Below are positions 1,017 to 64,000 of a DNA stretch of 64,000 nucleotides, one piece after another. The DNA is taken from positions 1,887,524-1,951,523 of the forward strand of contig MU057744.1 in assembly GCA_013265495.1 (NCBI GenBank), in the 5' to 3' direction. Source of the stretch: Vicugna vicugna. Its lineage: Eukaryota. The number at the start of each line of letters is the position of its first letter. The first letter of the stretch is position 1. The notes under the pieces were generated by a model, which was not told where the DNA came from, did no database searches, and saw only the letters and a list, made by a program, of their open reading frames with translations. Both the position numbers and the translations under genes were made by a program.

Positions 1017-1779
1017 GTAAACGGCTCTAAAAAATAAAGACTGTGGTTTGAGTGAAGTGTCTTTGCATTTGAGAAGGAGCATCTCAGGATCCTGGAGTAG
1101 GTGCAGCCTACTCCCGGCTCCTGGCCCCGTGGAGTCAAACACTAGGGGAGGACAGTTTGGGCAAGTAAATACATGTGTTCAAGGTGTTGTGTTTTCTTGA
1201 ATTTGACTGCTAAATGTAATGCTGGACAGAAGGAATAAGACACCCAATCCAGGATCTGTAAGTGGAGGCTGGAGATGCATCACCGTATTAGTATGTTTGA
1301 TAAATGATGCTTTTAGAATTGGCCTCTTTAAAATTTATTCAAATCTGGTATTTTTGCCAGCATGTATTTTTCTGGAGGGCAAAATCTCATTTACAGAAAT
1401 TATAATTGTAATCTTTAAAAAAAATGACTAATCTTGGAATGAAATGCAGTAAACTTACGTACCTTCTGGAGGCTTCCCCTCACGCCACTCGAGCCAGCGT
1501 CCTAGCGATGCCTTCTCAGTTCTGTTTAAACCCAAGTATGTTTTAGAGATTTAGCTGTGATTGTGCTGGGGTTATCAAGTCTAAGTCCTCAGAATTCTGC
1601 CAGAATGTCGTATACGTGAGAATCAATGACTGAGAAAGTCCGCTTCTGGGGTTACACTGGGCAGGAGTTCACACCGAGCTTTTAGACTGGATCTGAAAGG
1701 AGTTTCTGTGACAGTGATGCCCTGTCATAAAGCAGAATGCAGGCTCTCCTATGACCTTACCTTTTTTTCCTTTTTTTTA

Positions 1780-27431: not shown

Positions 27432-27749
27432 GTAGAGTGTCCGAAAGTCGTTTCACTTCTCTAATCCGGTCGCAACCTCACTGGGTTCTCGTGTCCCAGT
27501 TGAACTGCCTCATTCACTACTGCTTAGCGATGAGCTTGCGCGTGATTATGACTTAACCAGAGGTGGGTAGGTAAGTTAATTTCACAGCCTGCCTTAAGCA
27601 CGTGGAAGTTAGCAGTTTGATGGTGACAACGTTGAAATTATTTCACATGTTCCAACTGTGCGCTAAAGCCATTTATGAGCTCTGTGGGCGAGCGTGCCTG
27701 CCTCTGGTTTCCTTGGTTTCAAATTTAACTTGAGAGGGTGATTTTTCTC

Positions 27750-27752
27750 TTT

Positions 27753-27818
<66 letters not shown>

Positions 27819-27862
27819 TTTTTTTTTTTTTTTTATTTTTTTTTTTTTTCTTTTATTTTTTT
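27750..27862. repeat. ~110-nt near-pure poly(T) run abutting an assembly gap
   Basis: Direct inspection. Confidence 0.9.
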
Positions 27863-27913
27863 NNNNNNNNNNNNNNNNNNNNNNNNNNNNNNNNNNNNNN
27901 NNNNNNNNNNNNN
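27863..27913. other. Assembly gap (51 N)
   Basis: Run of n characters. Confidence 0.99.
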
Positions 27914-27992
27914 NCCCCCCCCCGATTTTTCTCTTTTCTTTCATGACTTTAACAAGTGACTGAGAAGCTGCTTTATGTGTTGCGTGATCCAG

Positions 27993-41709: not shown

Positions 41710-41745
41710 AAATCTACATCAATGCACCGGAGATATTACAATCTG
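41710..41745 (+). CDS. RYR2: RYR2 exon 75 (36 nt, alternatively spliced) KSTSMHRRYYNL with non-canonical GG donor
   Basis: gctaac branch-like motif and tttttccag acceptor. The peptide aligns with the 12-aa RyR2 segment between ...FHLEQ and VEHPQ... It is followed by ggaagt instead of gtaagt. Confidence 0.88.
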
Positions 41746-42468
41746 GGAAGTACAGTGTTCAGTTGCCTAGAAATTACTAATTAATGTAGAATTACATGTT
41801 GAAATTTTTTCTAATACTTACAATTAATCTCTTTTTCTTCTTGAAATTCCAAGCACCATTAGCTAAACAGATAGCTTGCTTGCAACATTTACTGCAACGT
41901 CTGAATTCTCGTTTGTCCCCGTCTAACAGAACAATTATATGTTTTAACATTTTTGCAAAATTGAATTCTTTTTCTCACTCCTAGTAATGTGTTCATGAAG
42001 ACTCGTCATCTCTCCATCCGGTTATGTTACAAAACAGTTGACTTTTCTTTAGGATTTTCTTTAGCTGCTCTAACGCACAATAAAATTGAGTATATAAACA
42101 AGCATAGGTGAATTTTTCTGAGTAGAGAGAAAATATGTTTTGGCACCATATCCAAATTCTGTAAAGGATGCAGAATGGTTTTATATAGAGTGGTTTTCTA
42201 TTTCTTTGAGTTTAGAGATGACATAGCTTCTAAAGTGCACATTATTGGGAAAATACTATATTTTTACTAAAGAACATAATGTAACATCTGAAACTATTTC
42301 AGACTGAGCATTTGGTAGCTTTTAGGATGTGGGTTTGTCTATAAGAATTGTGGGGTCCCCTTGGAATTGAAAGTCTAGAAGTCTTCAGCTAAAAGGTGCA
42401 GCTGCTGAACACTGTGTGTCTGAGGGCAGTTGGGGTCTGAGTGTGTGCGCCTTTGTGTCCTCCCTCAG

Positions 42469-51581: not shown

Positions 51582-51635
51582 AGCTGTCATGACGAGGAGG
51601 AGGATGACGGCGAAGAGGAGGTGAAGAGCTTTGAA
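51582..51635 (+). CDS. RYR2: RYR2 exon ~80 (54 nt) SCHDEEEDDGEEEVKSFE
   Basis: atcag acceptor, GAA|gtaaga donor. Confidence 0.96.
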
Positions 51636-52381
51636 GTAAGATGGCCTTTTCCCACGCCCGTCCCTGTCACCTGGAAACATTGTCTCATAGCTTCTAACTG
51701 ACATTTATGTTTCTTGCTTCATGGCTTACTGCAGCTTATTGTGTCAAGGAACTGCATGTCACAAGCTGGATGGACGAATCTGAGTCCTCACGTTTGCTGA
51801 AGTTAAGACCGAGGGACGTAGAGTAGTTAAAGAAGCAGGTGAAACCCATATGTTCAGGATGAGTGTTCCCGGGAGCCTCGGAGACGAGGCTGCTTCTGTC
51901 CTCAGCTCAGTGCGTGTCGTGCTCGGAAATTCCCAGCAGACACGGGAGAAAAATAGTTCCTGAAAAGCAACACGACGTCCAGGGTTTAATTAAACCCTCG
52001 GTCTGATGTCTTTTCCTGACTCGAAGAAGTCTTAACGATTTGGCCTCTTGCCTTCCGCCCGGTTGGGCCACTCATCCCCTGCACATATGTCGACGGGCAC
52101 CAGGGCTGCCTGCTCGCGTGAGGCAGGGCGCGGTAACCGAGGGCTGCCTTCTAGTGCACCAGTGTTTCCTCAGGTGGCCTCAGTTTAAATTTCCACGAAA
52201 TTTGAAATACTGCTCAATATTAATTAGCCAAAGGGAAAGTAAATACTATTTTCCCCTTTTGATTAGACTAGACTTTTGCTTTTTATAAGAGAGACAAGTT
52301 GTTGCTAATTACCACTCCATACTTATTGGTTCTTCTTTTCTTTTTCCTTTTTTTCTTTTTTTTTCTTTTTGAATTTTTCAG

Positions 52382-52402
52382 AAAGAAATTCAATGGAAGG
52401 AG
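52382..52402 (+). CDS. Candidate 21-nt in-frame microexon KEIQWKE
   Basis: About 80 nt AG-free pyrimidine-rich stretch, ttttcag acceptor, GAG|gtagat donor, phase 0/0. No transcript evidence available. Confidence 0.35.
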
Positions 52403-52887
52403 GTAGATTAGACATTTCTTTTCTTCTGTTAATTTACATGTCAGCTTTGGAAAGCTAGAAGTCTAGAAATGTATTAGTAGGCAGCAGTAAGTCTTTAATT
52501 ACAGTGGACCCACCGAGAAGCGTAGGTGAGGAGTAGACATGGAGTCGTGCTCCTTTCAGGGACAGTCTGATGTGAGCATCTCTGAAGCGCTGAAGTCGCT
52601 GTGTGAAAAAACCTCAAAATGAACTAATTTGAGAATAACCCATGAGTATCGCTGACTGAGAAAAATGCCGTGAGGTTAATTTCCTGTGTGAACTCTAATC
52701 TTTTCTAATGTATGTGTATTCTATTCTCAAATCCATCATTATTGCTGAGAAACTGAGCCAAGTTAGAATGAGCTGTGAGCAGCAAGCGATACTGTCTTCC
52801 TGAAGTGCACACCATTTGTGGCCTGTTGGTTGTGTTCCGAGCAGTTGTTTATTGCTCTTTTGCTTCTTGTCCTCATTCTTTCTGAAG

Positions 52888-52911
52888 GTCACAGGATCGC
52901 AGCGCAGCAAG
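52888..52911 (+). CDS. RYR2: RYR2 24-nt alternative cassette exon VTGSQRSK
   Basis: Pyrimidine tract + gaag acceptor, AAG|gtaaaa donor, phase 0/0. Peptide is identical to the known RyR2 24-bp splice insert between SFE and EKEMEK. Confidence 0.93.
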
Positions 52912-53460
52912 GTAAAACGATACGTATGTGTGTATTTGTCTGGGTCTGAGTTTTAGCTTCTCGTGACATTTACCTTTGTTAGACCCAACGTCTTCGATTC
53001 TTTTGTTTAAAAGAAAAATCAATCTCTCTACCAGTTTGCAGCTCCAGCGCAATTGGTCTCTTCAGTGTCCCTTCCTTGACACAGATTTGTTGTTCTTTAG
53101 TTTACCTGACTCACGATCTGACACTTTACCCTCTGTGCTAACTCTGAGCTGCCCACGGCCCTGGGATGAGAGTCCACCCTTCAGTGATTTAGCTTTAGCT
53201 GTTGACTTCGGTGCCGCGTTCCGGCCTCACCCTCTTGAGGGTCCTCCTGCCGGGCTCATTTCCTGGAGGGCGCTGCGACGTGGCGCTGCTCGTGAGGGGC
53301 AGTAAGTCTGCTCTCCCGCCGAGCCCGGCACACCTGCAGTTGGCATCTAGAGATGCTGCTCACTCTGTGTCTCTTTATAGGGAGAACTAGGGGAGCCTTC
53401 CTCGCTCTTAACACTCTAAACAGCTACGTCTCAGGGAAATTTGCTAGGACAAAACATTCT

Positions 53461-53653
53461 TTTTTTTTTACATTTTTTATTGAGTTATAGTCATTTTACA
53501 ATGTTGTGTCAAATTCCAGTGTAGAGCACAATTTTTCAGTTAATACCTGAAGATACATATATTCATTGTCACATTTTTTTTCACTGTGAGCTACCACATG
53601 ATCTTGTATATATTTCCCTGTGCTATACAGTATGATCTTGTTCATCTGTTCTA
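53461..53653 (-). mobile_element. Young 5'-truncated L1 3' end (camelid-type) with target-site duplication
   Basis: T-tail followed by an L1 3'UTR-like sequence (ttttattgagttatagtcattttacaatgttgtgtc...tttccctgtgctatacagta). Flanked by taggacaaaacattct (53445-53460) and taggacaaacattct (53654-53668). Confidence 0.8.
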
Positions 53654-56600
53654 TAGGACAAACATTCTAATCTCGAATTACAAAAGTTTTACTTCCATAT
53701 GAACTCTGTTAAGCTTCCATTTTGCATTCATGAGACTATTTAGTAGAAAAATAGATCATAAACATCCCAGGAAGAAGATACCCATTATGACTTTAGTTAA
53801 AAAAAAGAAAAAAGCCTTTTCAGTTTGGAAGTGCAGTCTTCTTTTTTGCCTTCTATTTTTAAAAAAGTGAAATATTTGCTGTTAGGGTGAATTTAGAATG
53901 TCACAAAGAATCTACTTAGAAGAAACAAATTGTCATGATTTTTACTCACTATTATATTTGGGGGAATATATTGTTCTTACATGATTTTAAAATTTGAGTT
54001 CATGCAGAGGCTATCGGATTTAGCTCTAATCAGATGGACGTAATTTAATGTCACACAACAGGCATAACACTTAGTAGTATTATGGGTTTATAATGATAGG
54101 TATGGACAGTGTGATCCTAATGTGTAGATTTTATAGTTTCATCACTAATTGTCTCAGACAGGATTCCTGTGACTTAGTGAGGGTTGAAAACATGGAGAGA
54201 CCTCGTAACATCCACCAGAGGTTTGATCTCATGGATAGCACTGAAGTTCACGTCCAGGATATGCACGGAAGGGGGTGAATGTGGAAGGCCAGGATGAGGG
54301 GTGTTGCTGGGTAAGAAAACCGTTTTACTTTGAAAGAGGACTGCAGTTTCAGGGAGACCTAAGAGCAAATCCCATTTGGCAAATAGGGTCCTATTTGGTG
54401 ACGTTAGAAGGTCCCCTATTGAGGCAGGAAGTCTGGGAATAACTAGTCGTGGAGTCTCAGCCTGTGGAGCGCAGGACCCGGGCCGTCCCGGCAGGACTGC
54501 ATGTCTCGGAGGTGAAACCTGGTGATTAGTCCCCGAAAGGAGACAAGAGACCGGCGAGGGTGACTGTCCCAGCACGAGACCGGAATTTGAATTTGCAGTG
54601 ATTGCCCGTGTTCACGTGTGTAACACAATAGACAAGATTTGGAAATTTTCACTTCTTAACCGATGTTTTACTGACCCTCCATGTGAATTTCAGACTGTAA
54701 CTTATTATTTATGCCTAATCTGTGTAACAGTCTACTATTTGCGAAATATGTACTCTGTAAGTAAACAATATGAACCCTTCCCAAGTTGAAAAACAGTCGT
54801 GTTTGTCAAAATTGACAGTCGATCACTTACGAAGATAAATTTGTCTGAGGTTGACCCTCTAAACCAACAAAACCACTGAAAGATTTGACCAGACAACTGG
54901 ATTATTACTTTCTCTTAATAAATTTAATAATGTACCAGACTTTTACATTGAGTTGTCTGGCTGTTTAACATCATTTAGACGCAGTCTGATAGTGGAATTT
55001 TTCATCTAAGCTGTACTGAATTCGAAAGGTTGTTTGGCAGCTTCATAATCCTTAAAACAAACTACGTTACGTGAATTTGGGGGTCACAAAATTGTGTGAT
55101 AATTGGATGTTATCCCTGTAGCTGGCTGGTTATTAACGTTTGCTGTACCTCCTACTTAAACCTGTGGTATCTGTAAAGATACTGAGAAGGAGGAAGAAGT
55201 AGCTGTAAACAGGTGGCACTGTAAGGAGAATTCCCGTGAGGAGTAAAAGTAAAACTCAGGAAGCGTGGGGAACGGGGTGGAAGCTGACGCGCCGCAGACT
55301 GGCCAGTTCTCTCTCCTTCCATCACGTTTGTTTCCTGGTATGATCCTGTTGAACTTGCCTGCTTTAAGCTGACAATTTAATTCCCAACTTCATCGATAAC
55401 CTATGTGTACTTTTCCTACAACTGCTTATTTAAAATTGTATTGCGTATTTAGTTGGTAATTATATGTAGTCTTTTTATTGAGACTGCTTCCATATTAAAA
55501 CTACAGAAAGGGACAGTGAAGTCTTACAAAGAGGCCAGTACTAACTGAAAGGGAAGAAGCGTTTGAGCAGTCCCCTGAAGTGTTCGTTACTGCACTGGAG
55601 CGCTTTGTTTAGCTTCGAGTTTTTCATGAGCCCAAACAAATGATAACAGCAACAAATAAACCGTAATGTGTCAAGTCAAATATCTTCATTTTTCTGAGCG
55701 TGGTGGGCTTTTCTCACCTAGAACAATGAGGAACTCTGGTGCCGGAGTAGACCGCATTGTCACATTACGATTTGGCAAAATGCACAGAAACATCCTCCAG
55801 ATGGCTGCTTCTCCTCCTGCCGCTCTCTCAGGTCTGAGGGCTCAGCGCTAAGGACGATGCAGTGACAGCATTTCTGTGGGATGTTAAGGACCGTAGCATA
55901 GACTTACTACTTATGGAAAACCTGAGTGAATGACCATGGAGCGTAAGCGAGCAGAGGTTGACCTTTGACGCGCCTTCTAGACCATGCTTCTCAAGCGCGC
56001 AGTAAGGTGCGTTGCCCGCTGGCAAGTGCCCGACTCCTGATCCACAGACGAGACTTCTCCGCTGAGTCCCCAAGGCCCTCTTACTCTGCAGTACTGATTA
56101 AAGAGAACTTCTTGAGTCTTACATGCCAAATATGCCTGTGGAGGAGCTGATAGTCTGCAGTAAGAACATAGGGGACTGGCCTGAATTCTCTCCCAGCTGG
56201 GCCTCAGTCCCAACTGAAGTGACAGCGTTCCTGCTGAGAGCTCAGACCGGCGCCCCGCTCGTGTCCCACAGTCGGCGCCACTGAGTGCAGGAGTCCACGT
56301 AGGTCCAGAGAGCCTTATGGGCCGATGGCTCTACACAGTGAGAAGACCACCTTTGTCTGACCCCTCCAGTGATCCAATTTTTGAATAGAACTGAATTTTT
56401 TGGAAGTTCTCTAAGAATGAGTTGGCCCTGAGAAGATCCCTCCCCAGTAGCTACCTAAACTGAATGGGCTTCTTTACTTCTGCTCATAGGAGCACAGCAG
56501 GTTAAGTTAGAGGGGCTTCCTGAATCTTACCTAAAAGAACCATCAAATATTAAAAACTAAAGATACAGCTATGAATATAAAACACTGAAGCAGTGACCTC

Positions 56601-57604
56601 TTTCATCAAGAACATTTATACTTCTTTAGTTTCTACTGCAGAAGATCTGTGGTATCAAGATACGGACTGGAGTGTTGAGTTGCTTGTCCTACTGTTGAAT
56701 CGTAGAGGGGAGGGGGAGGGAGCTCTGACGGCCAGTGTTCTCCAGTGCTCGTGCCTGATGCTGCAGTCTGCCCACTGCACGTTCAGATACTGGAATTGGT
56801 GATCTCAAGGAACGCCCTCAAGTCTTAGCCCAGGTTCCCTGGAGAACAGAGCAAAGAGGCTGTTTGCTGACACTATGTTGGGGCTGGAGGTGTTACAGTC
56901 TCAGGGAGGTAAGAGTGAGGGGCAGAGAGCACTGAAGCAGGGAAGCTGGGAGAGCACAATAATGCCTCCTTGAGCTGACCGCTGACCGCTGACCGCAGCT
57001 CCCAGCAGGACAGCAGCCACTCGGCTGTGCCGGACGCCCCTGGGAGGCCGTGCGCATCATGGAGCAGTGCCTCCTGGGAAGGAAGACTGAGCACTTTATC
57101 TGCTGGTTCCGTCCCATCTCCTGTCTCTTACTGGTCTGAGGGAGTTCATTTCTTCCTACGTCCTGCTGATACTAAGCAGCTGTTCCAGGGGGACCCCTGG
57201 GGAAGCCAGAGCCAGCTCGGGCCCAGCCTGCCCAGGGTCCAGGCACTGCAGTCTCTCCACAGTCATCAGCAGGTGGTCTCCTTACACAGTGGTGTGGTTA
57301 GGAGCCAGCTTGTCACCACACTACTGGTGCAAGCCATTTCTAGGGCCACGGTGCCTCAGAAGCAAGGCAGATCGCTAAGGCTTGGAGAGAAGGGGGCTTA
57401 GGGTGGGTTGGGGTACTAGTCCCGATACAAGGAAGATTCCATGTACAGCACAGTCCTCTATATTATATATGGGAATTTACGCCTATGAACGTGTGGACCT
57501 AAATAGCAAACTACACGGAGGCACACGCTAAAGCATAAAACTGCATTGTGTCCAGTACTGGACGTGTCCACATGACGTCCAGTAAACAGGATACAACAAA
57601 ATCA

Positions 57605-57810
57605 TTCAGAGCACAGGCACTTGGACAGACCACCTGTGTTTGAATCCCAGCTTCACCGTGTGGCTGTATGATCTCAAGCATCAATGTTCCTATCTATAAA
57701 ATGAGCCTAATTAAGGTCTCTACGTCACAGGATTGTGGTGACAATTAAATTAGTTGTTACATGTAACGCACTCAGAACACTGCCTATCACATAATGAGCT
57801 CTGTAAGTAT
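57605..57810 (+). mobile_element. MIR SINE
   Basis: tttgaatcccagct...ttcctatctataaaatg...caggattgtggtgacaattaaatta...cactcagaacactgcct. Confidence 0.65.
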
Positions 57811-60800
57811 TCTCTAGTGTCATTCTATTTGATCAGTTTCACTTCCTTACCAAAGTCAGGTCAGAGAAGCCCACAAAGGAGATTTTTCAGCACAGTGAGC
57901 CCGGAACCGAACAAGGCAGGGGACCTGAGTTCTCATCCGGTGCTAACCGGGTGCCCTTAAGCAGGTCACATTTAATTCCTCTGTACTTTTTCCCTTTGGA
58001 CTGAAAGCTTTGAACTGGATGTTCTCGGGGGTAATATCCACCTTTAAACCTGTCTGATTTGCTGTTTTTGAGTAAGTCCTTTTCATTTTTCAGGGCAATT
58101 TCCTAATTCTTCTAAATGCATAAACACTGATTAGAAGGATGCAAATTTTCATTACTTTTCTTCTGATCTTTCATGAAAGGGCAAAAAAGAAAATGAACTC
58201 CGTGTCTCTTAGTGCAGGAATGTCGCAATAAAAACGATTTATAGAAAATGACATCCAGCTTCTGTACATGTGTGTGTTTCTCTACCTGTTCCTAGATTGG
58301 TAGTTAAACTATCACATAATTATACATAATATGGTTAGATGAATAAAAAAGTGTTGAGGGCTAAAAAGCATTTAGGGACACAGAGAGGAGCCCCCCAGAA
58401 ATGGGATTAATCCAGAAACCTCTGCCACAGTATCTTGCTGATTTGCTGCAGGTTGTCAGTACTACTGATCCCAAACTTCCTAGGAGTCAACATAAAATCA
58501 CATAAATGTAAAAATTTACTCTGTCAGTAAAACACAGACAATCTCCTTCTTTGGGAGAAACAAATTCCTGAAGCATTTTCCCCCCAAGGGTCTTTGTGGG
58601 AAGACAACGTGTGATACGATGAAGAAGGCCTCCAGCAGTTCAGTAAAAGTAATTATTTGAGAATTTGTACAGTGAAGTCCAGGGATACAGGTGCCGTCTG
58701 AGGATGCCTCAGCACAGAATGAGCACCGAGGGGCTGGGAGGATGGGGGGCTCTGCGTCCTTAAGACAGTCTTCAGAAAGACCCTCCTCCCAGCTGAACAC
58801 GGAGCCCTTGGCGAGGAATCCGAGAGTGGATCAAGTGCTTACTTAGAGTGCAGCGGTTTCTCAGGAGTTGATCTGGGGCAAGATTAATAACCATTTGTGA
58901 AAACTTAAGAATTGCCGATACTGAAACTGCTAGAACTGGGAGATCTGAAAATCCAAACGGTGCATTGCTGTGATCTGTTCTGTGATAAAATCTACCGACT
59001 GCTGCTTCTCACTGACTGTTCCAGCTTCCTGGCACCTTCTGCTCTAACGGCTCCTCCCTGGGGCTGGAGGTCGTCAGTCCCCCAGTGCTCTCATCCTCCC
59101 CTCTGTCAGGCTATCCTAGTAGGACTGCAGGGCACGTACGTTCCACATTCAGGGCAGTATCCAGGGCTTCTGCGGCTTAAACAAAGAAACAAATAGGTGA
59201 AGGCTTTTGAAAATCAGTACTGTGCTCAGGATAAACACACTCCCTCTAGTGACAGATCAGCCTCACTTGGCTAATTTGATAGCCTCTGATTCTAGAGTCA
59301 CTCATTCCTTCATGTTGTACTTTGTTAACAGGGCTTTTGGTGGCGTAGCCTAAGTTTTGTCAGCAGGACCTTGAAATAGAAAACCGTTTCAGATCAGCTG
59401 GTTTCAGTGCTTTAGCATAGTATTGATTAGTTCTAAATATGCTGAATCCAGGGGAAACAGAATTCCAAACGAAATGGAAGTGTATCTGATACAGGAAGAA
59501 GTCAGCCGTAAAGTCACACTACGCAACACATCTGACCACTTTGAGAGCCTCCAGCGCGTTAGCTGAGCTGCATTTCTGTGGTTCAGTGTTTTTGTTGTCT
59601 CTTATATGTTAGTAAATCTTAGGCATTTAAACAAAGTTTGCTTTGGGTAAGCCACATTTTTAAAAATTTTCTTACTTAAAGAGAACATTAGAAACACGAT
59701 CATCCTATTGGGAAGTAGAACTCTAGAAGGTTACTGTACTATGTGATGGTTCAACAACAAAGAGAATGCGCAGTAATGAAAGCTACAGACAAAAAATAAG
59801 CTAAAAGCTACAATTTGAGAATTGTTATTTTTTGTATGTGTATAAATCTAGACTTTTTGGACCCTATACTAAAAAGTAAACTACATAAAATTTTCACATT
59901 GCACTAGCTTTGTAGCTCTTCAAAGGAAGGATAATATTTGTAAAACTTTGGATTAATTTTGCATACTACATGATAGCACATTATCTAGTTCTCTGATTCA
60001 TTTACACTTTCTTGAACATTTTTTATGTGCAGGAAACTGTACTGGATATGCAGTATATGTGTACTCGAGTTGTGTTTAATAAGCAAACCAGCTATGGCCC
60101 CTTTCCTCATGGAGCTTTATTTCTAGAAACCTCCATGTTCATTTAATTTTTAAAAATTAAATTTAAAAAATCTTGTGGAACCATCTATTATTGAGTAAAG
60201 TTACAATCTTATAAGTGCTTCCCTGACGCCGTGAGTCATCTTTTGATGAGTATGACTCCCCTGTAGTTTTGGAAGCTAGGACAAAGAACAGAACTAGTTG
60301 GAGTTCTGGAGATGTGACTGCTGTCTATACTTTCAGTTTTCCTTAGTGTGAGTTGTCCTGTTTGTATTTTAAACCAGACTGTTAGTACCATATCACTGTC
60401 TTTCAGCTTTGTCCTTAAGTTATCCAATTAAATCTTCTATATTCCAGTGTCTTCTTTTTGGTAATGTTAAGATTCAACATCACCTTGTAGATTACGACTA
60501 CATTTCAGATGCCAGATAAAATTATTTAATATTGACTTACAACATTGCTACATTATGGGAAATACTTTTAGAAAGAGTTCAGCTCCTGGAAACTTCTGTT
60601 CACTTATACTGTAACTAGCTTGCACATGAGTTTAAGAGGAAAAGATTATGATAACTTTTTCAATAGTTGCTGAAGGCTTAGAAGTACCAAAAAAGTACAA
60701 GCTAGTGGCTCCTTTGGGGTGATGCTCAGAGTGTAGACTTGGCACCCTCAGCTTGTGATGTACTGTGCTGCCCTAAATGCCCATAAACTAGAAAGGTCCC

Positions 60801-62727
60801 TCAGAAACAAAGTGAATTTCTTTGCTGCCATCAGTCTGCCCTGGTTTAAATCATATTTGTGTCTTCATTATGGGGATAAACTATTTTCTCCACCAAGAAA
60901 CAAGGGCTGATATAATTTAGTCTTATCTCAGCATTTTTTTGAATTGAAAGGATGTTTTTCTTCAAGCCTTTCCCTACCACCCCCCCACCATCAAGTGCTG
61001 AAAGCTTGAGAAACTTTTAGACAAAATAGAAGATTTTTAGCAATTTTCTTACAAACTTCAGTTATACTAAAAAAGCAAATCATGATGCTGAATGCTCCCA
61101 TTCAATGACTGATTTTATCATAGGTCCAATATATGATCACCCTTGACCTTGGAAAGACTCGTAACAATCTTATTTAGAAAACAGCTGGTAATTCTTGGTT
61201 GCTTTTGGCAATCAGAACTTTTTGCCTAAGGGAAAATTTAAATTGTGGAGCTGCTCCTTTTTAATATAAATTTTCTTTCCCTTAACCTCCCTTTGTAACG
61301 ATGGAAAAATTTGAAGACTAAACTACAGGTTGAAGGTATAGTGTTTAAAGACCCTTTGGCAGTTTAAGCAGAATATGGAATGCGGTGGGATGAGGAACCC
61401 TACTTTGAAAAAGGTACTTTCAAGGTGCTATTTCCTTGAGTAAGATACTTTTAAAAGATCTGTCTCCAGTTTGCTTGGAAAAGCTGATCTGCAGTAAATT
61501 TGGAATGAACGAATTTTTTCCTTTCTACATAACCCATGATTTTATTGCCTAAAAATTTTCTAGTTTAGCTTTAGCTTTCGAGGTTTTATTTTTTTATGTA
61601 GTGATAAAATTTCCAGTGAGGAGATTCAATTGTATCCCCAGAAGCAGTTCTCAAAGGAACACAAGGTACCAAAAGAAGTAATATTAAAGGTATTCTGAAG
61701 AGAGAGCTTCCAACTCAATCTAACAAGAAATTTGAAAGAGTAGCTGGCCCCATCTGTCTTTATGAAATAAGGCTTTCCTACTTCTGAATCAGTATATCTA
61801 TTTTTGCTCAATATTTTTTTTTGAAATGAGTCTCATCTCCCCTAAAATATTTACTGTTATTATTGACAGGTATACGTTATGTAAGAAAAATGAGAGCGAT
61901 CTTTGCTCAGGGAGTTTACTTTTTAAAGAAGGCGGTTTGATGTCCAGTCTTTCTTGACCCTCCAGAGGTCCATCCATCATGAGTGGTCTCAGTTCCCGGA
62001 GAGGTTGCTGGGACCTTAGATCCTGTTCCACAAGCTGCTGTGGCAGACCTTTGAGCTGGTCTGTCTTCTTTGGGAGCGTAAATGGCAAAGAGTTTTGGTT
62101 TTTGTTTCTCCTCAAAGCTATGTGGCATACTGCCCTCTTGCATCTTCTTTGGGTTTCCTGATGGCTACCTTTACATGCTCTACTGAGCCAGCAGAGCTGC
62201 TCTTTCTAACTCCCTTGCCTCTCTAGGTGATGAAAATAATGGTGCAGTTCCTTAAGCCAGTAATCTCTCACCATTGTTTTACTGGAACACTCTTTACAAA
62301 GGGAGTGGGTTAAGCTGGGAAATAAAAGTTCCACCAGTAGCTCTGAAAATGGGAGGAAAGTGAAAGATTGTTGGGTCTAAAAGGAAGAATCAAATGTTGC
62401 TCACCAATTTTCAACAACACCTGAAGAGCAGGCGCAAGGGGCTCCTTTCAGTTTTCTTGAGGCCGTGTTGTAATGACAATATGGTTTTGTGTGTCCGTGT
62501 GATTTTGTTTTCGTTTTGTTTTTGACTTCACAGGAAGAGGTTTAAACATGAAGGCAAACCTTTTAGATGTTAGCATGGCTACATATAAAGCAAAGCTGCC
62601 TTTTTTTTTTTTTTCTTTTCTCTGCATCCATTTAGGCCTATCACATAATTTAAGAAAAAATAAAAATTTAACCGCAGGAGCTCTAACTATAGTGTGAAAA
62701 AAACCCTGATCAATTTTGTTTTCGCAG

Positions 62728-62784
62728 CACGATATTATCAAAGATTTAAGAGACAAATTTGCCAGCCTCGGCGAGAACTCTCTG
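62728..62784 (+). CDS. Candidate 57-nt in-frame cassette exon HDIIKDLRDKFASLGENSL
   Basis: ccctgat branch-like motif, ttttgttttcgcag acceptor, CTG|gtaaca donor, 19 stop-free phase-0 codons. No transcript evidence available. Confidence 0.5.
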
Positions 62785-63942
62785 GTAACAGCATAAATGT
62801 CTGTGTTGGTTGCTTTTGATTTAAAGGTTTCTTTTTTTTTTTTTCATTTGTTTGAGCCCATTTCTTTTCCCCCTCTTTTTAGTTTCCTTTATTTTTCATA
62901 TTCTGTAACTAGCAAGCCTTCATTTTTTAAACCTCTTCCATCTTCCAGTGTCTATTTTCCGTACTTTGGATGGAAAGTTTACGGCAGCAAAGCTGTCACC
63001 CTGGCTACTTCTGCTGCAGCTCTTCCTGCTCTTAGGTCATACCTGTTTGGCCGTTGTGTTTATGGACATGATACTACTTGACTGTTTCATGTCCCGTTGA
63101 CTCAGCTTCTCTCCACGCCATTGGATGGACTCGCTGTCCTCGGGCTCTATGCAACTTCCATTCTGCAACTTATACTGCTTGGTTCCGTCTAATTCCAGCG
63201 AACTGGGTAGCTCAAGTGAATGATCCTACCAGTCCTGAACTTGCTGTGCCTTTATATTTTACTTCTATTCCCGTCTGTGCTTTCAGTGGTAGTTCAAGTG
63301 GAAAAGAGCAGTCCAGCCGCCGCTCTGGCAGTGCCATGCAGTATCGTTTGTTACCACCGGAGAATACAAAATATAAAGGCACACTGCTTCTTTTACCCTC
63401 GGGGGGCGGGACTGGGGGGGGTGCGGTAAGTCCACCACTTAGCTGAAGCCTGCCCTTCTCTGCCTATCAGCTTTCAATTTTGCTTATACTCCAACACGTC
63501 TCAGTTACTGTTTCTCTGTCATTCCGTGATAACCTCCTACTCGAGCCATTTGCTGAGCAGTATCAAGTTATGGCCATGACTTGGGAGATGACTAAAAACG
63601 TACAAACTTATGCACAAACGCATAATTCAGAAAGTGGAAGTTTCGATGATGAAGTACAGTCCTTCAAAACTCTGATACAGGCTTTGGACTAATCAAATAA
63701 TTACAATTGAGAAAATTCATCCTGATCAACCAGTACCAAAAGCATATCATGAGAAATATAAAGGGGAAAAAAAACCCCAAGAGTTGAATCCGTTACCACC
63801 TGCTGAGTAACATTGTTGGTGTTGAAATGGTCCATAATGTTGTCATAGAGCCCATACATGAAGAGATGACTGAAAAATACGGTTTATAAAGCCGCTCTGC
63901 TTAATGACAGCCGCAACATAAACGGTTGGGATTTGTGTTCAG

Positions 63943-64000
63943 GAAAAGGAAATGGAGAAGCAGAAGCTTCTGTACCAGCAAGCCAGGCTGCACGACCGCG
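63943..64000 (+). CDS. RYR2: RYR2 exon ~81, truncated by window end: EKEMEKQKLLYQQARLHDR
   Basis: ttcag acceptor; phase 0 continuation of exon 80. Confidence 0.96.

Follow-up and report, generated by a model that had tools for sequence, protein, structure and literature searches.

Evidence for a Conserved 57-nt Alternative Exon of RyR2 in the Intron That Also Holds the 24-nt Cassette

RyR2 is the Ca2+-release channel of heart and neurons. Among the ryanodine receptors, RyR1 (ASI and ASII) and RyR3 possess alternative exons that are short cassettes within cytoplasmic domains, regulated during development or by tissue; unlike the 57-nt exon considered here, they are situated at a different junction. 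Within RyR2 itself a close described system is the 24-bp exon, which goes back to George et al. 2007 (as cited in PMC7230170, PMC11263117 and PMC8168789). In the passages that deal with it, this exon is reported as a target of repression by RBM20 with effects on localisation and Ca2+ release (PMC7230170, PMC5793171, PMC8168789, PMC11263117, PMC8440945), and as mis-spliced in RBM20 cardiomyopathy (PMC7230170, PMC8168789). It shares with the 57-nt exon the host intron, the 0/0 phase and the insertion point, and both are small, frame-preserving cassettes; they differ in being separate exons with unrelated peptides.

Exon 75 of RyR2 is likewise a small, frame-preserving cassette (36 nt), and it falls within the same window, by which the whole stretch of DNA analysed (64,000 nt) is meant. 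Its position in the protein is about 150 residues upstream of the 57-nt exon, and its donor is of the non-canonical GG type, as published for this exon (PMC9033130; bioRxiv 10.1101/2025.09.04.674271), whereas the 57-nt exon has a canonical AG acceptor and GT donor. Together with exon 4, exon 75 separates heart-type from islet/neuroendocrine-type splicing (Takasawa et al. 2010, as described in PMC9033130 and PMC12109991); the sections of the sources that treat it state that exon 75 tells heart-type from islet-type channels (PMC9033130) and that it is QKI-dependent in human cells (bioRxiv 10.1101/2025.09.04.674271). A QKI-type motif (ACTAAT, i.e. ACUAAU, positions 41776-41781) was observed in the window 31 nt 3′ of exon 75, consistent with the reported QKI dependence. 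As presented in these sections, the exon 75 system indicates that tissue-specific cassettes of this gene region change channel behaviour. The parts of the literature that were covered discuss only the 24-bp, 30-bp, exon 4 and exon 75 events of RyR2.

The window and its RyR2 exons

Comparison of a full-length primate RyR2 protein (P0032) with the window by tblastn gave 19 exon matches, in order and on the + strand, spanning residues 2961-3732, and so places the window in the middle of the RyR2 gene. Among the RyR2 proteins in the set described below, the nearest to the window were two cluster representatives of Camelus dromedarius (98.9% over 10 exons). The window and Camelus are not identical; the 12-aa peptide of exon 75, for example, differs at 1 of its 12 positions. 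The features of the window are collated in Table 1, in which exon 80 is numbered with the 36-nt exon taken as exon 75; on this count the intron that holds the candidate is intron 80.

Table 1. Positions of RyR2 exons, splice signals and flanking tracts in the window.
Feature	Positions	Strand	Description
36-nt exon 75 (12 aa)	41710-41745	+	KSTSMHRRYYNL; GG donor ctg/ggaagt at 41746-41747
Constitutive exon 80	51582-51635	+	SCHDEEEDDGEEEVKSFE; ends ...EEVKSFE; donor GAA/gtaaga
24-nt alternative exon	52888-52911	+	VTGSQRSK; ctgaag/GTC...AAG/gtaaaa; same intron as the 57-nt exon, 9.8 kb upstream of it
U-rich tract	62600-62623	+	c t14 c tttt ctct; about 105-125 nt 5′ of the 57-nt exon
Branch-point-like CTGAT (yUnAy)	62706-62710	+	A at 62709, 18 nt before the acceptor G
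Polypyrimidine tract and acceptor	62713-62727	+	attttgttttcgcag; pyrimidine fraction 0.70 over -23 to -4; CAG
57-nt cassette exon (candidate)	62728-62784	+	Phase 0/0, stop-free; peptide HDIIKDLRDKFASLGENSL
Donor of the 57-nt exon	62785-62790	+	CTG/gtaaca; 6 of 9 consensus positions, +5 = C; weak-to-moderate 5′ splice site
Pyrimidine/UCUU-rich intron	62828-62905	+	3′ of the 57-nt exon
Next constitutive exon (start)	63943-64000	+	EKEMEKQKLLYQQARLHDR...; continues past the end of the window

The host intron (51636-63942, 12,307 nt) separates the exon that ends in ...EEVKSFE from the exon that starts with EKEMEKQK. The 3′ end of exon 80 (51635) reads ...GAGGTGAAGAGCTTTGAA and is followed directly by gtaaga; the downstream exon begins at 63943 with GAAAAGGAAATGGAG, preceded by the acceptor cag, and encodes EKEMEKQK.... 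Because both flanking exon boundaries fall between codons, an insert of 57 nt keeps the reading frame. A reading of the letters made beforehand (the sequence-only reading) had likewise numbered this intron 80 and had held that a 0/0 exon fits it exactly; the two boundaries bear this out.

Some features of the window were recorded in passing. In the acidic stretch encoded by 51582-51635, the window and Camelus read DEEEDDGEEE, compared with DEEDDDGEEE in most amniotes, and Tandem Repeats Finder reported a 15-nt imperfect repeat (51589-51619) within this stretch. An assembly gap of 52 N (27863-27914) lies inside a very long poly-T/T-rich tract (27742-27960), which is located in the intron 3′ of the exon that ends in ...RFVDYNR.

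Anatomy of the 57-nt segment and comparison with chance

The candidate begins with CAC GAT ATT, ends with TCT CTG and comprises 19 codons with zero stops. The sequence 5′ of it reads ttttgttttcgcag, the acceptor AG occupying 62726-62727, and there is no AG between the CTGAT motif and the acceptor. A second branch-point candidate (CTAAC, 62683-62687) was found farther upstream, with an AG intervening before the acceptor. The individual signals on which the candidate had been picked out, namely the CTGAT motif about 18 nt upstream, the acceptor, the 19 open codons and the donor CTG/GTAACA, are all present in the letters. The stop-to-stop open frame that surrounds the exon is only 28 codons long. 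The 57-nt stretch occurs once in the 2.03-Gb genome and is therefore not a repeat. Two other assignments were considered and rejected. A poison exon, inducing nonsense-mediated decay, is not compatible with the lack of a stop, the length divisible by 3 and the 0/0 phase; identity with the 24-nt exon does not agree with the separate coordinates of the two, nor with the 44 protein records in which their peptides stand side by side.

The simplest rival is that the segment is a chance pseudo-exon, i.e. an open frame within the intron that has AG and GT at its borders by coincidence, and the host intron supplies many such frames: 587 phase-0, stop-free AG...GT segments of 10-80 codons were counted in 51636-63942. 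These were passed through a crude splice filter (pyrimidine fraction ≥0.70, YAG acceptor, donor agreeing with the consensus at ≥6 of 9 positions, the consensus being taken from recall and applied with no trained model). Two of the 587 segments passed, the candidate and a segment of 37 codons at 59025-59135 (LPGTFCSNG...). The splice sites of the candidate are themselves ordinary (donor 6/9, pyrimidine fraction 0.70), and the sequence by itself is weak evidence that exceeds chance only weakly.

The sequence-only reading had further taken the spacing of hydrophobic residues to be a helical periodicity unusual for random intron, a view that the statistics do not support. At 100 degrees the hydrophobic moment of the window peptide is 0.417, a value reached by 7.6% of 5000 shuffles, which is not significant and to that extent leaves the pseudo-exon its ground; for the orthologous peptides the moments are 0.373 in chicken (10.6% of shuffles), 0.356 in Myotis (14.3%) and 0.229 in the teleost Denticeps (46.9%). 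The periodicity argument therefore carries little weight. The case for a real exon accordingly has to be made from cross-species conservation, not from the features first listed from the sequence, and it is there that the pseudo-exon fails. The peptide of the other filter-passing segment, 59025-59135, which is probably a pseudo-exon, matches 0 of 377 RyR proteins, whereas the 19-aa insert of the candidate recurs at this very junction in 20 species, a teleost among them, with 56 records in all. Agreement among fish, birds and mammals in length, phase, position and peptide is beyond what a chance intronic frame can explain, and we consider this rival effectively refuted.

The insert in RyR2 proteins of other species

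The protein set comprised 377 RyR proteins, many of them automatic gene models, and the junction was readable in 335. It was assembled from searches and from cluster listings (8 RyR2 clusters in a first listing, a second listing later) and is biased by search ranking; as the sample is not random, fractions of records are no measure of exon usage. When insert-free sequences served as queries, two protein searches brought up, among the 147 proteins collected to that point, only insert-free forms or forms with the 24-nt exon. This reflects ranking bias, not absence, since insert-free forms score best against such queries. The exon first surfaced through cluster members (rat isoform X7) and then through a search with the corresponding region of the rat isoform.

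A 19-aa insert was found exactly at the junction between SFE (or VTGSQRSK) and EKEMEK in 56 of the 335 readable RyR2 records, from 20 species. The records divide into those that join SFE straight to EKEMEK (187), those with the 24-nt exon only, as VTGSQRSK or ATGSQRSK (91), those with both cassettes (44), those with the 19-aa insert only (12) and one with an aberrant junction. All four combinations of the two cassettes are thus annotated, and the two exons are annotated independently. Whether alone or with the 57-nt exon, the 24-nt exon is present in 135 of the 335 records; in bats and mink its annotated peptide is ATGSQRSK. In 44 of the 56 insert-bearing records the 57-nt exon stands directly 3′ of the 24-nt exon, so that the commoner annotated junction is 52911->62728 and not 51635->62728. 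These counts agree with the expectations voiced beforehand that 19 residues would be added between SFE and EKEMEK and that the peptide would be missing from canonical RyR2, the direct junction being the one seen in 187 records.

The comparison with isoforms of other species that had been proposed as a check yielded a match in rat RyR2 isoform X7 (P0181, XP_063132825.1, 4991 aa), which reads ...EEEVKSFE-VTGSQRSK-HDIIKDLRNKFASLGENSL-EKEMEKQK... and is identical to the window peptide at 18 of 19 positions; 55 further records carry the 19-aa insert. Rat X7 is one of 3 mammalian records with the insert, the others being from Theropithecus gelada (P0268) and Myotis brandtii. Birds contribute 44 records from 16 species (Gallus, Phasianus, Centrocercus, Cygnus, Apus, Aptenodytes, two Phalacrocorax, two Zonotrichia, two Ammospiza, Catharus, Ficedula, Pithys and Indicator); the chicken isoforms with the 57-nt exon include X1-X4, X6, X8 and X11. 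In the teleost Denticeps clupeoides, 9 isoforms (X1-X8 among them) contain the insert, with the peptide RDIIKGLSLKIASNEENSM. Identity to the window peptide is 18/19 in rat, gelada and most birds, 17/19 in the chicken group and Cygnus, 15/19 in Myotis and 11/19 in Denticeps. The insert is 19 residues long in all 56 records, and 8 columns are invariant (D2, I4, K5, L7, A12, S13, E16 and S18). Position 9 is D in the window versus N, A or L in other species.

One could suppose instead that the segment is a conserved intronic element, for instance a splicing-regulatory sequence or RNA structure that controls the 24-nt exon, and that its coding annotation in several genomes is an error of gene predictors. 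Automatic models do make up many of the records, and the passages on the 24-bp exon place the host intron under RBM20-dependent regulation (PMC7230170, PMC5793171). An element of this kind would nevertheless have to have kept the exact length of 57 nt and the phase from fish to mammals, as well as both splice sites, with conservative substitutions at the protein level (I/N, F/I, L/I/N, D/N), and we consider it very improbable.

The distribution of the insert bears on another alternative: the exon may be real in other lineages, notably in birds, and silent or nearly so in this mammal, where slow decay or some non-coding function would account for its persistence. The 57-nt exon is missing from all 13 Camelus isoform records (the 24-nt exon is in 7 of them, neither cassette in the other 6), most mammalian records in the set are without the insert, and the 3 mammalian records with it compare with 44 from birds. 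In the reptile and amphibian records examined (alligator, turtles, lizards and axolotl) the insert is absent. The weak donor (6/9) points in the same direction as the Camelus and mammalian counts. Absence from gene models, however, may only mirror the tissues that were sequenced, and, when compared with rat and birds, the frame, both splice dinucleotides and 18 of 19 residues have remained intact through ~300 million years of separation, an intactness that is hard to square with lost constraint. Silence of the exon in this mammal is therefore regarded as unlikely, albeit less so than an intronic element.

It was also asked of the genome whether the paralogues carry the cassette. A search with the downstream RyR2 segment located two further ryanodine receptor loci, C1298 and C9176, whose sequences and compact introns suggest that they are RyR1-like and RyR3-like, respectively. 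The introns equivalent to intron 80 measure ~1.35 kb in C1298 and ~1.1 kb in C9176, and when the 19-aa peptide was compared with both by tblastn (E up to 20), no counterpart emerged, the only result being a weak 'IIKK' match. The site of this match, in the RyR3-like intron (L014, G000:C9176, ~1162-1200, minus strand), is a fragment translating as ...YHSTPVRMAIIKKSINNKY, which we take to be similar to the tail of LINE-1 ORF2 and not a homologue of the cassette. The cassette thus appears to be specific to RyR2.

Taken with the alternatives above, the protein records argue that the 57-nt stretch is a genuine, conserved alternative exon of RyR2 that is usable in this genome, a reading to which we assign a probability of roughly 0.85. 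We further infer its inclusion in mRNA of this species. A search of sequencing runs with two sampled words matched 22 rows from 6 organisms, all typed as 'RNA?' or '?' and none on record as RNA, and is counted neither for nor against inclusion.

Proposed role and meaning

The 57-nt segment would then be an evolutionarily ancient optional cassette whose inclusion is probably regulated. Seven UCUU motifs were counted in the 250 nt 3′ of the exon, where the intron mean would predict 1.9, and a T-run lies 45-65 nt 3′ of it; UGCAUG and ACUAAY were not found by motif count within 250 nt on either side. The U-rich tract 5′ of the exon is a possible silencer of the PTBP/RBM20 type, and the UCUU-rich region 3′ of it could act as a silencer or an enhancer. 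This pattern gives a hint, compatible with the motif counts, of repression by UCUU-binding proteins (PTBP or RBM20); RBM20 is also the repressor reported for the 24-nt exon nearby. Modest splice sites and U/UCUU-rich flanks are consistent with a regulated, probably tissue-restricted exon.

Inclusion would add 19 residues alone, or 27 together with the 24-nt exon, within the acidic linker SCHDEE(E/D)DDGEEEVKSFE and just before the helix beginning EKEMEKQKLLYQQARL. With hydrophobic residues at I4, L7, F/I11 and L/I/N14 and two serines that never vary, the insert may form a short helix and offer phosphosites. By analogy with the neighbouring 24-nt exon, one may guess that the insert modulates gating, regulation or targeting.

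These elements can be combined into a more far-reaching proposal, which we put forward tentatively and hold to be rather doubtful. The insert might be an overlooked, functionally distinct regulatory module of RyR2: a short helix whose two invariant serines stand in the contexts K-x-A-S and E-N/H-S, placed where the central domain begins and adjoining the 24-nt cassette, co-regulated with it by UCUU-binding repressors (RBM20/PTBP) and changing gating, partner binding or targeting wherever it is included.

As an object the exon is already known, in that it is contained in public predicted RyR2 models of at least 20 species. In the literature covered, we found no paper on the 57-nt exon or with its peptide, nor a reported function or regulator for it; that the exon is undescribed in the literature is not thereby established. 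To our knowledge, it is absent from the constructs that have served for RyR2 structures and functional work. The result is mainly a validation, namely that a true exon was recognised from raw sequence, and its kind is unsurprising; the exon is nonetheless a cheap and well-defined target, of moderate interest to RyR2 specialists.

Its meaning for the channel lies in a second cassette at the insertion point of the 24-nt exon, one with deeper conservation (fish to mammals), which could explain isoform-specific behaviour of RyR2. Variants of the human gene near the 57-nt exon would currently be read as deep-intronic. If the proposed module were real, its conservation from teleost to mammals would define an ancient second type of RyR2 channel.
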